IMG/VR virus record: IMGVR_UViG_2529292829_000011
Length of the DNA: 8,710 bases
From: a virus
Taxonomy: Duplodnaviria; Heunggongvirae; Uroviricota; Caudoviricetes
Strand: one strand, 5' to 3'
Shown: positions 445 through 8,710 of the stretch, piece by piece
Layout of the letters: every line of letters begins with the position of its first letter
Numbering within the stretch: position 1 is the first letter of the stretch
The notes under the pieces: model-generated
Seen by the model: only the letters and a program-made list of their open reading frames with translations
The model's database searches: none
What the model was told of the DNA's origin: nothing
Translations under genes and position numbers: made by a program

Positions 445-3400
445 ATGGGTAAAGGAAGCAGTAAGGGGCATACCCCGCGCGAAGCGAAGGACAACCTGAA
501 GTCCACGCAGTTGCTGAGTGTGATCGATGCCATCAGCGAAGGGCCGGTTGAAGGTCCGGTGGATGGATTAAAAAGCGTGCTGCTGAACAGTACGCCGGTG
601 CTGGACACTGAGGGGAATACCAACATCGCCGGTGTCACGGTGGTGTTCCGTGCCGGTGAGCAGGAGCAGACTCCGCCGGAGGGATTTGAATCCTCCGGCT
701 CCGAGACGGTGTTGGGTACGGAAGTGAAATACGACACGCCGATCACCCGCGCCATCACGTCGGCAAACATCGACCGACTGCGCTTTACCTTCGGTGTGCA
801 GGCACTGGTGGAAACCACCTCAAAGGGGGACCGGAATCCGTCGGAAGTCCGCCTGCTGGTTCAGATACAACGTAACGGTGGCTGGGTGACGGAAAAAGAC
901 ATCACCATTAAGGGCAAAACCACCTCGCAGTATCTGGCCTCGGTGGTGGTGGATAACCTGCCGCCGCGCCCGTTTAATATCCGGATGCGCAGGATGACGC
1001 CGGACAGCACCACAGACCAGCTGCAGAACAAAACGCTCTGGTCGTCATACACCGAAATCATCGATGTGAAACAGTGCTACCCGAACACGGCACTGGTCGG
1101 CGTGCAGGTGGACTCGGAGCAGTTCGGCAGCCAGCAGGTGAGCCGTAATTATCATCTTCGCGGGCGCATTCTGCAGGTGCCGTCGAACTATAACCCGCAG
1201 ACGCGGCAATACAGCGGTATCTGGGACGGAACGTTTAAGCCAGCATACAGCAAAACATGGCCTGGTGTCTGTGGGATATGCTGACCCATCCCGCTACGGC
1301 ATGGGGAAACGTCTTGGTGCGGCGGATGTGGACAAATGGGCGCTGTATGTCATCGGCCAGTACTGCGACCAGTCAGTGCCGGACGGCTTTGGCGGCACGG
1401 AGCCGCGCATCACCTGTAATGCGTACCTGACCACACAGCGCAAGGCGTGGGATGTGCTCAGTGATTTCTGCTCGCGATGCGCTGTATGCGGTATGGAACG
1501 GGCAGACGCTGACGTTCGTGCAGGACCGACCGTCGGATAAGGTGTGGCCTATAACCGCAGTAATGTGGTGATGCCGGATGATGGGCGCCGTTCCGCTACA
1601 GTTCAGCGCCCTGAAGGACCGCCATAATGCCGTTGAGGTGAACTGGATTGACCCGATAACGGCTGGGAGACGGCGACAGAGCTTGTGAGAACGCAGGCCA
1701 TTGCCCGTTACGGTCGTAACGTCACGAAGATGGATGCCTTTGGCTGTACCAGCCGGGGGCAGGCACACCGCGCCGGGCTGTGGCTGATTAAAACGGAACT
1801 GCTGGAAACGCAGACCGTGGACTTCAGCGTGGGTGCGGAAGGGCTTCGCCATGTACCGGGCGATGTCATTGAAATCTGCGATGATGACTATGCCGGTATC
1901 AGCACCGGTGGGCGCGTGCTGGCGGTGAACAGCCAGACCCGGACGCTGACGCTCGACCGTGAAATCACGCTGCCATCCTCCGGTACCACGCTGATAAGCC
2001 TGGTTGACGGCAGGGATCCGGTCAGCGTGGAGGTCAGTCCGTCACCGACGGCGTGAAGGTAAAGTGAGCCGTGTTCCTGACGGGTTGCGAATACAGCGTT
2101 GGGGGCTGAAGTGCCGACGTGCGCCAGCGCTGTTCCGCTGCGTGAGTATCCGTGAGAACGACGACGGCACGTATGCCATCACCGCCGTGCAGCATGTCCG
2201 GAAAAAGAGCCATCGTGGATAACGGGGCGCACTTTGACGGCGACCAGAGCGGCACGGTGAATGGTGTCACGCCGCCAGCGGTGCAGCACTGACGCGAAGT
2301 CACCGCAGACAGCGGGGAATATCAGGTGCTGGCCGTGGGACACGCCGAAGGTGGTGAAGGGCGTGAGCTTCCTGCTTCGCCTGACCGTAGCAGCGGATGA
2401 CGGCCGTGAGCGGCTGGTCAGCACGGCCCGGACGACGGAAACCACTTACCGCTTCACACAACTGGCTCTGGGGAACTACAGGCTGACAGTCCGGGCAGTA
2501 AATGCGTGGGGGCAGCAGGGCGATCCTGCACCACCACCTTCCGGATTAACGCACCTGCAAAACCCGCCACCATTGAGCTGACGCCGGGGTATTTTCAGAT
2601 AACGGCGGTCCCGCGTCTTGCGGTGTATGACCCGACGGTACAGTTTGAATTCTGGTTCTCAGAAAAACGCATCACGAACACAGCACAGGTGGAAAAATCT
2701 GCCCGTTATCTGGGGGCCGGCAGTCAGTGGACTGTCCAGGGGAGCCGGATTAAGCCGGGGACGGATTTCTGGTTTTACGTGCGAAGCGTCAACCTGGTGG
2801 GAAAATCTGCTTTTGTGGAAGCCAGCGGGCAGCCCAGCAATGATGGTGAAGGGTATCTGGAAATTTTCCGGGGGCTGATAGATGAGACGCTTCTTGGTCA
2901 GGCACTGAAAGAGCGCATTGATGCTTCAGCGCTGCGTACGGAGGTCACGCAACTGGAAGAAGACATCCGTCAGCGGATGGACACGGATATCGCAGAAGTG
3001 ACCCGGAAAATCGGGAAGGCGGAAAACACTCTCACGCAGCTGGTTGCGAAAAAGAATGAGGACCAGGCACTGGCCATCGCGCAGGTGAACCAGAAAGTGG
3101 ACCGGGTGAGCAGTGAAATCTCACAGACTGTCAGCCAGGGGCAGTCAGAAAACGCCCGACAGATAGCACAGGTTCGCCAGTACGTGGATAAAAAAGGGAG
3201 TGAAATTACCTCGACCACGGATAAAAAGCTGGGTGATCAGGCCGTGACCATACAGCAAATCCAGCGGGTTCAGTCAGACACGCGCAATGAGCTGAATGCC
3301 ATGTATATGCTGAAGGTGCAGAAAACAAAAAACGGTATTCCCTATGTGGCCGGGATTGGGGCGGGGATTGAGGATGTTGATGGTCAGACCCTGAGTAACA

Positions 3401-4116
3401 TTCTGCTGCAGGCCGATCGCATTGCAATGATTACCCCGGAGAACGGTAACCCCACGCCGCTGTTTGTGGCGCAGGGGAATCAGCTGTTCATGAACGACGT
3501 GTTCCTGAAGCGACTGTTTGCGGTGAGCATCACGTCATCCGGTAATCCTCCGGCATTTTCCCTGACACCGGACGGGCGGCTGACGGCGAGAAATGCTGAT
3601 ATCAGCGGTAACGTTAATGCGAATTCCGGGACGCTCAACAACGTCACGATTAATCAGAACTGCCGGATCCTTGGAAAACTGTCAGCCAGCCATATTGAAG
3701 GCGATATTGTCAAAACGGTGGGTAAGGCTTTCCCGCGAAATGGAAGTTATGCCAGTGGCACGATAACCGTCACGGTTTATGATGATCAGGGATTCGACCG
3801 GCAGATTATCATTCCGCCGGTATTATTTCGTGGTACGAAACACCAGAATTTCAACAGTCATAACCAACAGTCATACTGGTATTCAACCTGTAAGCTGCAG
3901 GTACTGAAGAACGGACAGGAAATCTTTCAGCAACCCGCGACGGATGTCAGCAGGGTATTTTCATCCGTCATTGATATGCCTGCCGGACACGGCCATGTCA
4001 CCCTGACTTTCAATGTTTCTTCATATGGTGCTAATAAGTGGACGCCAACGACCAGTATCAGCGACCTTCTTGTTATTGTGATGAAGAAATCTACAGCCGG
4101 TATCAGTATCAGTTGA
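445..4116 (+). pseudogene. J: Host specificity protein J (tail tip / central tail fibre), disrupted by multiple frameshifts
   Basis: ATG at 445 is preceded by GAGG. The first 280 aa (frame 1, 445-1284) are near-identical to my recollection of the lambda J N-terminus (MGKGSSKGHTPREAKDNLKSTQLLSVIDAISEGP...). The J-like reading then continues in frame 2 (1265-1540, 1685-2056), frame 3 (2004-2222), frame 2 (2261-2581) and finally frame 1 (2506-4116, 536 aa, ending ...[15 protein letters not shown]). Codon-level reading shows short stretches in other frames in between (e.g. MAWCLWDMLTHP in frame 3 at 1257-1292). The 3672-nt span would encode about 1220 aa if intact. Confidence 0.85.
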
Positions 4117-4134
4117 ATTTTATAACCCCAATAC

Positions 4135-4162
4135 GGGCGCCAGAAATGGCGCCTTTTTTATT
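4135..4162 (+). terminator. Rho-independent terminator-like hairpin downstream of J
   Basis: GGCGCC (4136-4141), loop AGAAAT, GGCGCC (4148-4153), a perfect 6-bp GC stem followed directly by TTTTTTATT (4154-4162). Orientation fits + strand transcription; the reverse complement has no trailing T-run. Confidence 0.6.
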
Positions 4163-4183
4163 GCAGAAAAGCGAGAGGTAATT

Positions 4184-4783
4184 ATGCGTAAATTATGTGC
4201 TGTTATTCTGTCCGCAGTAGTCTGGCTGGTTGCCGCTGGTACGCCAGCGAGCGCAGCAGAACATCAGTCCACGCTGAGCGCGGGGTATCTTCATGCCCGT
4301 ACGAACGCTCCCGGTAGTGATGATCTGAACGGGATTAACGTGAAATACCGTTATGAGTTTACGGACATGCTGGGTGTTGTGACGTCATTCAGTTATGCCA
4401 ATGCCAAAGATGAGCAAAAAACGCATTACAGCGATACCCGCTGGCATGAGGATTCCGTGCGTAACCGCGGGTTCAGTGTGATGGCGGGGCCGTCTGTTCG
4501 CGTGAATGAATGGTTCAGCGCGTATGCGATGGCGGGTATGGCTTACAGCCGTGTGTCGACTTTCTCCGGGGATTATATCCGCGTAACTGACAACAAGGGG
4601 AAAACGCACGATGTGCTGACCGGAAGTGATGACGGTCGCCACAGCAACACGTCTCTGGCGTGGGGAGCTGGCGTGCAGTTTAACCCGACCGAATCCGTGG
4701 CCATTGATATTGCTTATGAAGTCTCCGGCAGTGGCGACTGGCGCACTGACGGTTTCATCGTGGGTGTCGGTTATAAGTTCTGA
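4184..4783 (+). CDS. lom: Lom outer-membrane beta-barrel protein (Ail/Lom/OmpX family), lysogenic-conversion-type moron
   Basis: 199-aa ORF with GAGAGG 7-12 nt upstream of the ATG. N-terminus is a signal peptide (MRKLCAVILSAVVWLVAAGTPASA/AEHQ). Near-identical over its length to my recollection of lambda Lom (STLSAGYLHA.TNAPGSDDLNGINVKYRYEFTD...SVMAGPSVRVNEWFSAYAMAG...GFIVGVGYKF), with a C-terminal aromatic residue typical of OM beta-barrels. Confidence 0.93.
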   Translation: MRKLCAVILSAVVWLVAAGTPASAAEHQSTLSAGYLHARTNAPGSDDLNGINVKYRYEFTDMLGVVTSFSYANAKDEQKTHYSDTRWHEDSVRNRGFSVMAGPSVRVNEWFSAYAMAGMAYSRVSTFSGDYIRVTDNKGKTHDVLTGSDDGRHSNTSLAWGAGVQFNPTESVAIDIAYEVSGSGDWRTDGFIVGVGYKF

Positions 4784-4814
4784 TTAGCCAGGTAACACAG
4801 TGTTATGACAGCAT

Positions 4815-4840
4815 GCCTGTTCAATCAGGCGGGCTTTTTT
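4815..4840 (+). terminator. Weak terminator-like hairpin downstream of lom
   Basis: GCCTG (4815-4819), loop TTCAAT, CAGGC (4826-4830), then GGGCTTTTTT (4831-4840). Only a 5-bp stem, with 4 nt between stem and T-run, so modest. Confidence 0.35.
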
Positions 4841-4851
4841 GTGGGGTGAAT

Positions 4852-7800
4852 ATGGCAGTAAAGATTTCAGGTGTACTGAAAGATGGGGCGGGTAAACCTG
4901 TCGTAAATTGTGCGATTGAACTGCGGGCCAGAAGAACCAGCCCGACCGTTGTGGCGCACGTTGTCGCCACTTGTGTGACGGACAATAACGGTGCTTATGT
5001 GATTGAGGCTGAGCCGGGGTATTACGAGGTTGCGCTTCACCGTAACGGCTGGCAGCCAACCCGTGTCGGGGATATTTATGTGGCACCGACTGATGCACCG
5101 GGGACACTGAATGCGTTTCTGGATGCACCAAAGGATAGTGATTTACGTCCGGAGGTGATGAAGCGCTTTGAGGAAATGGTGGATGCGGTTGCCCGGCAGT
5201 CGGAGCAGGTCACCAATGATCGTGAAAGGGCAGAGGCGGTAGCGGAGGCAGCAACAAACGCAGCGAACTCTGCTCTTGACAGTAAAAATAAGGCAGAAGA
5301 TCTAAAAAATAAGGCACAGCAAAATGCCGAAGCCGCTGCAGAAAGCGAACGACAGGCCGGGCAACATGTCGCTGATGCGCAGAAGATTAAGGGGGATTGC
5401 CAGACGCTGGCGGATAACGTACAGCAGAATGCAGAATCCGTTGCCGAAGATAAAAAGCAGGTGGCACAGCTGGCATCATCTGCCACACAGGATGCGGCCA
5501 GCGCAGAGCAGGCTGTCAAGGATGCTGACTCGATAGTCCGGAAAGCGGTCGATAAACTCGGTGAAGCTGCAACGCTGACCGGCGAGGCAAAAGCCAGCGC
5601 CGAAGCGGCAGCAAAAAGCGAACAGAACGCGAAACAGCACAGGGACGAGGCGCAACGGATAGTTGATGACCTGAAGGGAAGCAATGCTTCCACGACAGAA
5701 AAAGGCCTGGTGCAACTCTGTAGTGATACGGACAACGACAGCGAAGAACTGGCAGCCACACCGAAGGCCGTCAAAACCGTCATGGACGAGACGAAAACAA
5801 AAGCGCCGCTGGACAGCCCGGCATTCACCGGCACGCCCACCACACCAACCCCACCGGACGATGCTGCCGGTCTGGAAACAGCGAACGCGGCATTTGTCCG
5901 CAAACTGCTCGCTGCACTGGTTGACTCGTCACCGGAGGCCCTGGACACGCTGAACGAGCTGGCAGCGGCGCTGGGAAATGACCCGAATTTTGCGACGACA
6001 GTCACCAAAGCACTGGCAGGGAAACAGCCACTCAGTGACGTGTTAACCGCAATCAGTAATCTGGAAGAACGGGCAGATAATCTTCTGTGCTTTAATCAGG
6101 ACGGAAATGCTTCACTGTCTCCACTGTCAGAAAAAGCCCGGTCACTGCTGGCACAGGCCACAGTGGAAGCTATGCGCAATGAGCTTGAGCTGAAAAGCGC
6201 AGCGGTAATGGATATTCAGACAGACATTCACGACAGCACGAAAGGCCGCATTGCGCTTCCCGGTGCGTATGGTTACGGAATGACGGACGCCGGAGCGCGT
6301 TCAATTATTGCCAGCGATATGGCGACTGTAGCCAGAACCGCTCACAACCTGCACCCGGGACGCTATTACACCTTTGCCACACGAACGGAAGAAACAACCG
6401 GGATAACAGAAATTATCTGGCTGGATAATGGCCGGGCCGACAAAACCAGCCAGACAGCAACAAAGCTGGTTCTGTTTTTTGGAAAAGACGGACGGATTCT
6501 TATGACCGTTCGTGGCGATAATATCTCCGCCCCGGTCACCTGGACGAATCTGACGCCACAACTTGGCAATGCAGCACAGAAGGATGCGCAGGAGAATATT
6601 TACGACCGCACCGAAGGCCGTCTGGCGATTCCCGGCATGTTTGGATTCGGGAAAGTATTTTTCATCGGCGACAGGACCGAGTTTAAAACAGAGGCCGATT
6701 TTCTCCGCTGGGTAAAAACGGCAAATCCCGGACGCTATGCCGTTTATGCAGATACAAATGCGGTAATACAGGGCGTGCTGTTCAAGGGTACCGTTGAAAT
6801 TATCTGGCCGGAACCTCAAATCAGCCATGATACGGCATATGTGGCCAAAATCATTATTTTTTACGGTATTAACGGTCATATTTATTACAATCGCTACTGG
6901 ACTACCGGAGGTGGTTATCTGGTTGGCTGGGAAAACCTGAAAGTCAACGAGGCTTCACTCCGGGCACTGATTGAAACCCGAGCGCCACTGAACAGTCCGG
7001 CACTGACCGGAACGCCGTCCACGCCAACACCACCGGATGATGCAGCAGGTAATGAAATAGCCAATGCGGCGTTTGTCCGCAAACTGCTCGCCACGCTGGT
7101 TGGCTCATCACCGGAAGCCCTGGACACGCTGAACGAGCTGGCAGCGGCACTGGGCAATGACCCGAACTTTGCGACAACCGTCACTAATGCACTGGCAGGG
7201 AAACAGCCGCTTAATGACGTGTTAACGGCTGTCAGCAAGATAACACCGGAAGAAAACACACTGCCCTATTTCAGTGCAGATGGCAGGATTTTACTGGCGC
7301 AGTTGTCAGAAAAAGCCCGCGCATTACTGGCACTGGACACACCTGAAGCCATGCGCACGGAGCTTGAACTGAAAGCGGCTGCGACGATGGAACCCCAGAG
7401 CGATATCCGCGACCGCACACCGGGCAGACTGGCACTGTCCGGCATGCATGGATTCGGTCAGGCATTCACCAGTGCCGACGCTCTGACATTTAACGGGCAG
7501 GCCGATTTTGTTGAATGGCTGAAAAAGGCCGCCCCGGGGCGTTATGCGGTCAGTATTGCGGACTCTTCCATGCTGCTGGTTGGCACCAAGAAATTTAACG
7601 GCACCATTGATGTGATGTGGTCGCCCTTTGATAACGATGAGTCGGACACAATACGAAAATTCAAAACACTGCTGTGTTTTAACCAGTATTACGAAGGTGA
7701 GCATAGTATTCATTTCCTGACTTACCGCTTTAGTGGAAACAACTGGAATGCAACAGTAAGCCCTGTCATTTACGACGGCGATTCGCTGGCGTTCTTACTG

Positions 7801-8112
7801 TCCCGGACAGCAGGCTCAGGCTCATATTTCAAATACCCGGCAGTGGGTGTTCCAGTGCTGGCTGTTTATCGCGGAACAACTTCCGGGGATAAAGAAATCA
7901 ATATTGGCCTGGGTGATGTGGTGCAGGGGTCACAACTGGGCGGAGTTAATCTTTCGTGCTTAATATCTTCTGCTGGGGTTGGCTCCTACAATTCCGCACC
8001 GAGTGCAGGAGCTACAGGGTACACTTTCCCGGGGCGTTATATGGCGCTATCCGGGGTCAGGGACTCTAAAGGAATAACCGGTCGTATCTGCCTGTTTGTG
8101 CGCATCGAGTAA
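4852..8112 (+). CDS. stf: Side tail fibre protein (Stf-like), long modular variant
   Basis: Frame 1 ORF 4813-8112. I prefer the ATG at 4852 (MAVKISGVLKDGAGKPV...), because the lambda Stf N-terminus as I recall it begins MAVKISGVLKDG and a G-rich stretch precedes it. The ATG at 4813 lies inside the lom terminator hairpin. The N-terminal ~110 aa are lambda-Stf-like, followed by an Ala/Glu/Lys/Gln-rich coiled coil (about 5200-5700) and two conserved tail-fibre boxes (KAPLDSPAFTGTPTTPTPPDDAAG... and RAPLNSPALTGTPSTPTPPDDAAG...), each followed by ...ALDTLNELAAALGNDPNFATTVT.ALAGKQPL. Confidence 0.9.
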   Translation: MAVKISGVLKDGAGKPVVNCAIELRARRTSPTVVAHVVATCVTDNNGAYVIEAEPGYYEVALHRNGWQPTRVGDIYVAPTDAPGTLNAFLDAPKDSDLRPEVMKRFEEMVDAVARQSEQVTNDRERAEAVAEAATNAANSALDSKNKAEDLKNKAQQNAEAAAESERQAGQHVADAQKIKGDCQTLADNVQQNAESVAEDKKQVAQLASSATQDAASAEQAVKDADSIVRKAVDKLGEAATLTGEAKASAEAAAKSEQNAKQHRDEAQRIVDDLKGSNASTTEKGLVQLCSDTDNDSEELAATPKAVKTVMDETKTKAPLDSPAFTGTPTTPTPPDDAAGLETANAAFVRKLLAALVDSSPEALDTLNELAAALGNDPNFATTVTKALAGKQPLSDVLTAISNLEERADNLLCFNQDGNASLSPLSEKARSLLAQATVEAMRNELELKSAAVMDIQTDIHDSTKGRIALPGAYGYGMTDAGARSIIASDMATVARTAHNLHPGRYYTFATRTEETTGITEIIWLDNGRADKTSQTATKLVLFFGKDGRILMTVRGDNISAPVTWTNLTPQLGNAAQKDAQENIYDRTEGRLAIPGMFGFGKVFFIGDRTEFKTEADFLRWVKTANPGRYAVYADTNAVIQGVLFKGTVEIIWPEPQISHDTAYVAKIIIFYGINGHIYYNRYWTTGGGYLVGWENLKVNEASLRALIETRAPLNSPALTGTPSTPTPPDDAAGNEIANAAFVRKLLATLVGSSPEALDTLNELAAALGNDPNFATTVTNALAGKQPLNDVLTAVSKITPEENTLPYFSADGRILLAQLSEKARALLALDTPEAMRTELELKAAATMEPQSDIRDRTPGRLALSGMHGFGQAFTSADALTFNGQADFVEWLKKAAPGRYAVSIADSSMLLVGTKKFNGTIDVMWSPFDNDESDTIRKFKTLLCFNQYYEGEHSIHFLTYRFSGNNWNATVSPVIYDGDSLAFLLSRTAGSGSYFKYPAVGVPVLAVYRGTTSGDKEINIGLGDVVQGSQLGGVNLSCLISSAGVGSYNSAPSAGATGYTFPGRYMALSGVRDSKGITGRICLFVRIE
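5806..6290 (+). repeat. Intragenic direct repeat, copy 1 (conserved tail-fibre box module inside stf)
   Basis: About 480 nt that re-occur at 6985-7460 with high nucleotide similarity (by eye roughly 85% over the first 260 nt, including identical runs such as TTTGTCCGCAAACTGCTCGC and CCCTGGACACGCTGAACGAGCTGGCAGCGGC). Copy spacing is 1179 nt (393 codons), so the repeat is in frame. Confidence 0.8.
6985..7460 (+). repeat. Intragenic direct repeat, copy 2 (conserved tail-fibre box module inside stf)
   Basis: Second copy of the module described at 5806-6290; encodes APLNSPALTGTPSTPTPPDDAAGNEIANAAFVRKLLATLVGSSPEALDTLNELAAALGNDPNFATTVTNALAGKQPLNDVLTAV...SEKARALLA...EAMRTELELKAAATME. Confidence 0.8.
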
Positions 8113-8125
8113 CGGGGAATAAAAC

Positions 8126-8710
8126 ATGAAAATCAGAGCGGTAAAGGGCATCAGAAACGCCCATTATCTTGAAAATGGTGCGGTTGACTGCGAGGTGTTA
8201 TTTGAAGGTGAAACGGAATTCGTCCCGTATACCGCCATGCAGGATGATACCGCACCGACAGGCCAGCGCATCTGGGAAGAGTTGCAGAACGGCAAATGGG
8301 GCGAAATCGCCCCTTTCACTGTCACGCCGGAACTTATCGCCGCGGCGAAGGATGCCAAAAAGCAGGAAATCGAGGCATGGCGCACAGAACAGGAAGCACT
8401 GCCGTTCACCTTTGAATGGAACGGTCGCACCTGGAACGCTGGCCCCGACTCAATGGCCCGTCTTTATCCGGTAGTAATGGCGGCGAAATCCGATACGGCA
8501 CGAACCGCCCTTGCATGGGGTGATGCCGATAATCAACAGGTGAAACTGTCAATGCCGGAACTGGAAGAACTGGCGGCAGCAATGGCGCAGGCGCAGCTCG
8601 ATCGCAATGACGAGATTTATCGACGTCAGCGGGAGATGAAGGAAGAACTGAATAATCTGGAGGATTTGGGTTCAATCAGGAAACTGGTCGTTAGCTCAGA
8701 AAAACCTTGA
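8126..8710 (+). CDS. Tail-fibre-associated protein of uncertain function (occupies the tfa position; not a canonical lambda Tfa)
   Basis: Complete 194-aa ORF starting 13 nt after the stf stop, with its TGA at 8708-8710, the last three bases of the window. Same length and position as lambda tfa, but the translation does not resemble lambda Tfa as I recall it and lacks the C-terminal W..Y..L..RVD....WP motif of that chaperone family. The C-terminal half is acidic and helix-prone (ELEELAAAMAQAQLDRNDEIYRRQREMKEELNNLEDL). It reminds me of a family of unknown function (DUF4376-type) seen next to enterobacterial prophage fibre genes, but I cannot confirm that without a search. Confidence 0.6.
   Translation: MKIRAVKGIRNAHYLENGAVDCEVLFEGETEFVPYTAMQDDTAPTGQRIWEELQNGKWGEIAPFTVTPELIAAAKDAKKQEIEAWRTEQEALPFTFEWNGRTWNAGPDSMARLYPVVMAAKSDTARTALAWGDADNQQVKLSMPELEELAAAMAQAQLDRNDEIYRRQREMKEELNNLEDLGSIRKLVVSSEKP

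Follow-up and report, generated by a model that had tools for sequence, protein, structure and literature searches.

The window, which was the whole 8,710-nucleotide stretch of the Caudoviricetes virus record IMGVR_UViG_2529292829_000011 under analysis, carried a tail-gene context in which I lay upstream of J, and lom, stf and tfa lay downstream. The features identified on it are listed below, and residue numbers (aa) refer to the translation of the open reading frame (ORF) at 2506-4116.

445..4116, + strand: whole gpJ reading region (tail tip attachment / host specificity), 1233 aa once the 30 missing bases are restored
1254..2539, + strand: 24 small deletions (1-3 nt, 30 bases in total, zero insertions) breaking the J frame, from pairwise alignments with three intact J genes
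2506..4116, + strand: the ORF singled out by the sequence-only reading, 536 codons plus stop, in the J frame only from about 2530-2540 on
2560..2868, + strand: FNIII-2, the second FNIII/Ig-like domain of J (PF24489 Ig_J_second, aa 19-121, E = 4.6e-40)
2839..3300, + strand: extended alpha-helical shaft (AHS), aa 112-265, matching lambda gpJ 809-861 plus about 101 inserted residues
2929..3234, + strand: AHS insert of about 101 residues not in lambda, from the alignment
3250..3672, + strand: central straight fibre (CSF, beta-prism; PF09327 Phage_Tail_Tip, aa 249-376, E = 4.4e-25)
3673..4113, + strand: receptor-binding domain (RBD, Ig-like) of the A8/ev203/Stx1-phage class (PF12421 Ig_GpJ_C, aa 414-536, E = 6e-38)
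4184..4783, + strand: lom, Ail/Lom outer-membrane protein (Pfam Ail_Lom, E = 2.7e-123)
4813..8112, + strand: stf, side tail fibre (Pfam phage_tail_N, Phage_fiber_2)
8126..8710, + strand: tail fibre assembly protein (DUF4376; PF14301), a 194-aa gene in relatives

The N-terminus of J, MGKGSSKGHTPREAKDNLKS, was the same as in lambda and E. coli J, the Pfam domain FNIII-A_GpJ was found in the first J fragment (445-1284), and positions 1-2600 showed 97% nucleotide identity to an intact annotated gpJ. In relatives, a 1233-aa J was located in the same gene context and a gene of 1086-1100 aa occupied the stf position; the true start of stf in the window is likely at 4852 (MAVKISG...). An identical Lom protein was present on many E. 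coli contigs, and the 1233-aa J adjoined it in all six of the matches listed. As the sequence-only reading had remarked, the J of the window was longer than that of lambda despite its deletions (3672 nt for 445-4116 vs 3399 nt), and all the peptide strings quoted there were present in the translation of 2506-4116. The statement that the last 536 aa of J are in one frame was borne out with one small correction. The ORF is real, but its first 8-11 codons are outside the J frame because the last upstream deletion falls at 2529-2539, at a position that depends on the reference, and the true J portion comprised about 525-527 codons. The GTG at 2506 was merely the first start codon past a stop and no start of J.

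Within 2506-4116, the Pfam domains followed the order PF24489 Ig_J_second, PF09327 Phage_Tail_Tip and PF12421 Ig_GpJ_C, by which the C-terminal series of gpJ was complete. The sequence search of the PDB returned A8 gpJ (9wca, E = 2e-183) as the top match and lambda J (8iyk) at E = 5e-139, and these sequence-level matches were regarded as decisive. The intact 1233-aa gpJ proteins of an E. coli genome (GCA_014579115.1) and of a metagenome contig were only 6 nt and 2 aa apart from the ORF over the last 525 codons. Both carried lom, stf and tfa downstream of J like the window, whereas J was uninterrupted in them and had 24 small deletions at 1254-2539 in the window; the first 2 kb of the window J represented a somewhat different allele from theirs. 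Thousands of database J proteins showed 87-98% identity across the entire ORF. The window as such was absent from complete E. coli genomes, in which the best matches reached 80% coverage and 86% identity. Given this near-identity to deposited and annotated J genes, the allele was an ordinary one, and the window J belongs, as a routine member, to the tail-tip protein class that is commonest in E. coli prophages. The view that it is a noteworthy or altered variant was not supported in the light of the intact near-identical J genes, the thousands of relatives at 87-98% identity, and the presence of the shaft insert in 13% of complete genomes.

The domains were then compared with those of known J proteins. 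Lambda gpJ (P03749; PDB 8iyk, 8xcg and further entries), which binds LamB, shared with the window the domain order FNIII-2, AHS, CSF and Ig-like RBD as well as the context I-J-lom-stf-tfa, and the identity was 67-69% in FNIII-2 and CSF (67% in CSF). The window differed from lambda in an AHS longer by about 101 residues, in an RBD of 46-47% identity with three loop indels, and in a predicted receptor other than LamB. The best PDB match, the A8 gpJ chimera (Brodel et al., Nature 2024, PMC11338833; PDB 9wca/9wcb, "A8 gpJ 713"), had an identical loop-length pattern and a near-identical C-terminal tail, but it contained the short AHS of lambda and about 21% of its RBD residues differed. The 1232-aa J proteins of PhiR49_2 (PV340570) and PhiR40_1 (PV340560) had the same long AHS, with an insert 97% identical to that of the window, and showed 93-100% identity through FNIII-2, AHS and CSF (FNIII-2 98% and CSF 93% for PhiR49_2), while their RBD belonged to a different class with 61-64% identity and lambda-like loop lengths. 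Conversely, the RBD class of the window was found in the Escherichia phages Lambda_ev203, 1H12, ev110, PhiR57_1, PhiR47_2 and 1W and in Stx1 phages such as Stx1_499, whose J of 1158-1160 aa, unlike that of the window, had a mid-length AHS with one 29-residue unit vs about 3.5; in FNIII-2 and CSF, the identity to the window was 68-72% for the ev203 group and 86% for Stx1_499. By these identities, the allele is a natural mosaic, in which FNIII-2, shaft and prism match PhiR49_2 and the RBD matches ev203, PhiR57_1 and the Stx1 phages. Each of the J modules was carried by viable phages.

The RBD of the window was 93-93.7% identical to that of ev203 and PhiR57_1, 89-92% to Stx1_499, 78-79% to A8 and 46-47% to lambda, and records with this RBD type at at least 80% nucleotide identity numbered 1130. 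The earlier description of a C-terminal domain related to, yet diverged from, that of lambda was correct on both counts, with the Ig_GpJ_C match on one side and the low identity to the lambda RBD on the other. Against the natural part of A8, 132 of 168 residues (79%) were identical, and all three loop indels that separate A8 from lambda were shared: the PRxxSYASG loop was 4 residues shorter, another loop was 5 longer, and the loop before WTPTT was 1 shorter. In A8, lambda J up to residue 964 is joined to the C-terminus of a natural E. coli gpJ. A recipient lacking both lamB and ompC receives DNA from A8 only if ompC is provided; wild-type lambda shows no such delivery (PMC11338833). Since the closest characterised relative uses OmpC and not LamB, a different receptor is likely for the window RBD; judged from this resemblance, the receptor would probably be OmpC and not LamB.

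It was considered whether the RBD uses another receptor, such as LamB, OmpF or some other outer-membrane protein, so that the likeness to A8 reflects only a shared scaffold. About one residue in five differs from A8, and a few RBD substitutions are enough to shift or broaden porin use, as in lambda (to OmpF) and phi21 (from LamB to OmpC and OmpF). Among the chimeras with C-termini from natural E. coli gpJ, A8 and 1A2 were characterised on a recipient without lamB, and these two differ in the OmpC variants that they accept (PMC11338833). However, both of these chimeras are OmpC users (PMC11338833), the window has the complete set of A8-vs-lambda indels, and its RBD is far closer to A8 than to lambda, so this alternative was given a minority chance, although an appreciable one. 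Phi21 was dropped as a natural OmpC-using J comparator because its native receptor is LamB and its use of OmpC and OmpF arose in laboratory evolution. The literature searches found no receptor experiments on the window RBD or on the phage RBDs 93% identical to it, no published receptors for ev203, 1H12, PhiR47_2 and PhiR57_1, and no paper describing 9wca/9wcb. The proposal of altered receptor specificity was sustained insofar as the tip has diverged from the LamB-binding RBD of lambda, and it was not supported insofar as a noteworthy variant was meant. The sequence-only reading had also held that near-identity to a J with a known receptor would make this an ordinary allele; A8 at 79% is strictly short of that, but the near-identity to J genes already deposited and annotated makes the allele ordinary all the same.

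Upstream, a single uninterrupted J frame of about 1130-1235 codons was not found, as 24 deletions interrupted it. In an alignment of 10 J alleles, 16 of the 30 deleted columns were polymorphic compared with 11% of the other columns (Fisher P = 3.6e-8), and between 2000 and 2200, seven of the ten sites that distinguish two allele types were the deleted ones. Over the 6.2 kb beyond the deletions, the window and an intact prophage were separated by about 10 substitutions, with indels absent. A 64-mer across six of the deletions had no match in GTDB representative genomes. The preference of the deletions for sites polymorphic between alleles suggested an artefact over decay. To our knowledge, no mutational process targets inter-allele polymorphic sites, whereas a consensus over mixed paralogous reads, or the removal of ambiguity codes, would hit such positions. 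An assembly or consensus artefact was the more likely origin of the deletion pattern compared with gene decay, and the real genome may carry an uninterrupted J.

The alternative is that J is a truly decayed pseudogene in a defective prophage, in which case the ORF at 2506-4116 would be an unexpressed remnant and its intactness incidental. Taken at face value, the sequence as given is that of a pseudogene, with 24 frame-breaking deletions across 1254-2539 and an ORF that opens on a GTG unrelated to the start of J. But the events were all deletions without an insertion and limited to 1.3 kb, the following 6.2 kb was free of indels, the polymorphic sites were strongly enriched among the deleted ones, and near-identical relatives had an intact J. 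Decay was therefore considered unlikely, and an artefact of assembly or consensus was retained as the better account.

The AHS of lambda, gpJ 809-861, is a three-helix bundle that refolds upon LamB binding (PMC11101478). In the PDB alignment, the match of the window J to lambda J broke at lambda 838 (query 141) and restarted at lambda 840 (query 244), and both flanks of the lambda shaft were kept. The region aa 114-270 was proline-free with 41% E/K/R/D/Q, and its hydrophobic periodicity peaked at 3.65 residues, a power equalled in 1 of 500 shuffles. Internal repeats of 29 residues were detected (offsets 29 and 58). An AlphaFold2 model of the 536-aa monomer, built from a shallow alignment of 23 sequences with a mean pLDDT of 47 and used for secondary structure only, placed helices at aa 127-137, 140-241 and 249-267 (nt 2884-3306); this low-confidence model weakly backs the helicity of the shaft. 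The canonical 3.5-residue heptad periodicity was not observed; the peak of 3.65 and the repeat of 29/8 = 3.63 were nearer to a hendecad or 29/8 period, and they suit a helical bundle or shaft more than the left-handed coil of classic heptads. Thus, the coiled-coil stretch pointed out earlier was real as a helical segment, "heptad-like" was approximate, and the segment was an expansion of the known lambda AHS and no new element.

The insert was present in 712 of 5426 complete E. coli genomes (13%), mostly at 95-99% nucleotide identity, and was annotated as gpJ in all the matches listed. Among 50,697 phage records, it was found only in PhiR40_1 and PhiR49_2, both of which are plaque-forming. The mid-length J alleles retained the last 29 residues of the insert, and the AHS sizes corresponded to J lengths of 1132, about 1159 and about 1233 aa, which differ by roughly 1 and 3.5 units of the 29-residue repeat. 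Tandem Repeats Finder detected no DNA-level tandem repeat in the shaft, so the 29-residue repeats were old and present at the protein level only. The reading of the segment as a novel insertion, either foreign or recently duplicated, that gives J a new function could draw on the lack of a counterpart in lambda J, of a Pfam model over the segment and of any description in the literature searched, but it was rejected as highly improbable, because the segment lies within the known AHS, is nearly invariant across many deposited J proteins, is shared by 13% of the complete E. coli genomes and by two plaque-forming phages, has an intermediate-length class with one unit, and is not recent by the lack of a DNA tandem repeat. 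As a tentative suggestion, in which we place rather little confidence, the AHS may be a modular length element with at least three natural sizes that reassorts independently of the RBD, and its length could set the reach through O-antigen or capsule to the porin or tune the refolding trigger of tail opening. No description of a shaft length polymorphism was found in the literature searched.

By analogy with the lambda structures, the gpJ fibre would be a homotrimer, its AHS a bundle of three helices and its beta-prism intertwined, and the bottom loops of the three RBDs would enter an outer-membrane porin that is itself trimeric. To judge from the 79% identity and the loop indels common with A8, this porin would most likely be OmpC and not LamB. 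The shaft would then refold, as proposed from lambda, by which the FNIII collar would be freed and the tail tip would open. At 0.15 nm per residue, the fibre would gain about 15 nm in length from the roughly 101 additional residues of the helical shaft.

The overall account, in which we place fairly high confidence, is that 2506-4116 encodes the C-terminal part of gpJ, the central tail fibre/tip protein of an E. coli prophage of the lambda-like kind, in a common allele already present in databases, together with the mosaic, receptor, shaft and artefact readings given above. The discovery value is small, as the sequence is essentially in public genomes already. The deletions give a warning that, where a prophage gene is present in several copies, what looks like a pseudogene can be an artefact of consensus building. 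The mosaic indicates that natural J recombination occurs near lambda residue 964, the conserved junction used by engineers for retargeting lambda particles, and the prediction of OmpC, not LamB, as probable receptor extends to a large set of prophage J alleles. The shaft, whose refolding opens the tail, adds an undescribed length polymorphism of gpJ.

The window comes from a lambda-like E. coli prophage, whose distal tail genes it carries in the following order:

115-384, end of tail assembly gene I
445-4116, plus strand, J
4184-4783, plus strand, lom
4813-8112, plus strand, side tail fibre gene (stf, 1099 codons)
8126-8710, plus strand, tail-fibre assembly gene (tfa, DUF4376)

The annotated tail genes of E. 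coli chromosomes followed the same order, as did six contigs with an identical Lom protein, in all of which J was an unbroken gene of 1233 aa. In five of six related contigs (L008, L009, L010, L012 and L013), hya-like genes for the small and large subunits of a NiFe hydrogenase adjoined the prophage at 11183-12304, downstream of tfa and about 650 nt past the tail end, which suggested a common chromosomal insertion site; another neighbour was found there in L011. The first ~125 nt aligned poorly with several relatives otherwise 96-98% identical, indicating a further mosaic boundary at the I gene (1-127, end of the K/I region). In stf, a 265-nt direct repeat was detected (5795-6059 and 6974-7238, 84% identity, 1179 nt apart). 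Since the protein carries a duplicated module (APLxSPAxTGTP...NDPNFATTV...) followed by three similar domains starting xDIxDxTxGRxAxxGxxGxG, the side tail fibre is made of repeated units. Its far 3' end (7850-8092) was the most variable stretch among otherwise near-identical relatives, which fits a fibre tip that binds receptors: alignments by BLAST broke there for L007-L010 and L012, L012 showed several 3-9 nt indels, and L013 matched throughout.

The open reading frame at 2506-4116 was present, and its translation contained exactly the peptide strings quoted in the sequence-only reading. In the PDB sequence search it matched lambda gpJ (8iyk, E = 5e-139), and the better match was 9wca, "A8 gpJ 713" (E = 2e-183). 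Three Pfam domains were assigned:

ORF aa 19-121, plus strand, Ig_J_second
ORF aa 249-376, plus strand, Phage_Tail_Tip
ORF aa 414-536, plus strand, Ig_GpJ_C

J was indeed longer than lambda J (span of 3672 versus 3399 nt). As the last frame-breaking deletion lies at 2529-2539, its position varying with the reference, the first 8-11 codons of the ORF are not J, and the in-frame J portion comprises about 525-527 codons.

Compared with three intact references, 30 bases were missing from 1254-2539 in 24 events of 1-3 nt each, outside homopolymers and with no insertions, while over 2540-8710 about 10 substitutions and no indels separated the window from L013. Among ten intact J alleles, 16 of the 30 deleted columns were variable, versus 153 of 1361 other columns (~11%; Fisher P = 3.6e-8), and at 2000-2200 the missing bases accounted for 7 of the 10 sites separating two main allele types. 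We know of no mutational process that removes positions polymorphic between alleles; such a loss would be produced by a consensus that collapses reads of two J paralogs, or by stripping out ambiguity codes. J-like places numbered a median of three per E. coli genome. Because the deletions favour polymorphic sites in this way, the J frameshifts are quite probably a consensus artefact and not decay. In the first 2 kb of J (445-2539), the allele differed from that of L013, the closest relative, by 53 substitutions, versus about 10 over the next 6.2 kb, and most resembled a PCP06022-type J; this conserved 5' part has thus been affected either by recombination or by the mixing of paralogs.

An altered receptor had been proposed for the diverged C-terminus. 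In the receptor-binding domain (RBD, aa 390-536), the window shared 47% identity with lambda, 64-65% with the E. coli PCP06022 / PhiR49_2 class, 78% with A8, 90% with Stx1_499, and 93% with ev203 and PhiR57_1; tblastn against phage records gave 93.7% identity to ev203, 1H12, ev110, PhiR57_1, PhiR47_2 and 1W. A8 consists of lambda gpJ to residue 964 followed by a C-terminus taken from a natural gpJ of E. coli, and was selected on a lamB-deleted recipient; in a lamB/ompC double deletion it delivered DNA only when ompC was supplied, a delivery not seen with wild-type lambda particles (PMC11338833). In its natural part, 132 of 168 residues were the same as in the window, and its three loop-length differences from lambda were all common to the window. 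On this resemblance, OmpC is the best-supported candidate receptor, held with somewhat better than even confidence because in lambda and phi21 porin use can shift with just a few changes in the RBD, and because the literature search found no published receptor for the closer phage relatives of this RBD.

The sliding identity profile revealed a mosaic of three zones, with 93-100% identity to PhiR49_2 over 2540-3514; ev203 was nearest over ~3590-3740 and 3890-4116 (85-99%), and Stx1_499 was nearer over 3740-3890. The similarity switch falls in a conserved stretch near lambda residue 964, the junction of the engineered gpJ chimeras. Over the last 525 codons, J of L013 (E. coli GCA_014579115.1) and of L012 (a metagenome contig) differed from the window by 6 nt and two residues (A71T, P316T), and thousands of deposited proteins were 87-98% identical across the full ORF, with the shaft almost invariant among them. 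The gpJ allele is an ordinary one, with a combination of common modules that had been deposited before. The observation on this ORF was correct, and half of its interpretation holds: the tip differs from lambda's and is probably not specific for LamB, but the allele itself is not unusual.

The coiled-coil segment also proved real. Residues 114-270 contained no proline and 41% E/K/R/D/Q, with a hydrophobic periodicity of 3.65 residues whose power was reached by 1 of 500 shuffles; internal repeats of 29 residues were found there, and a search for a repeat at the DNA level in this stretch found none. AlphaFold2 predicted, as a monomer and at low confidence (mean pLDDT 47), one unbroken helix at aa 140-241 flanked by helices at aa 127-137 and 249-267. 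The PDB alignment with lambda J ended at lambda residue 838 (query 141) and restarted at 840 (query 244). Because this break falls inside lambda residues 809-861, the alpha-helical shaft (AHS) of Ge and Wang (PMC11101478), the coiled coil is the known AHS with about 101 residues inserted where its two helices join. The lambda AHS is a three-helix bundle beneath the fibronectin-type (FNIII) collar; on RBD-LamB binding it flips and partly turns to beta-strands, the collar is released and the tip opens (PMC11101478).

At least three shaft lengths were found among natural J proteins: the shortest in lambda (1132 aa), a middle class of 1158-1160 aa with one added 29-residue unit (E. coli PCP06022, ev203, PhiR57_1 and Stx1_499), and a long class of 1232-1233 aa, to which the window and its relatives belong along with PhiR49_2. 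Of 5426 complete E. coli genomes, 712 carried the long insert, for the most part at 95-99% nucleotide identity and annotated as gpJ in all matches listed; among 50,697 phage records, only 2 had it. Since both of these phages have E. coli ECOR13 as recorded host, the long shaft can be presumed to function. The one mildly new angle on gpJ is that the length of its helical shaft varies in discrete steps, a polymorphism whose functional meaning would be putative.
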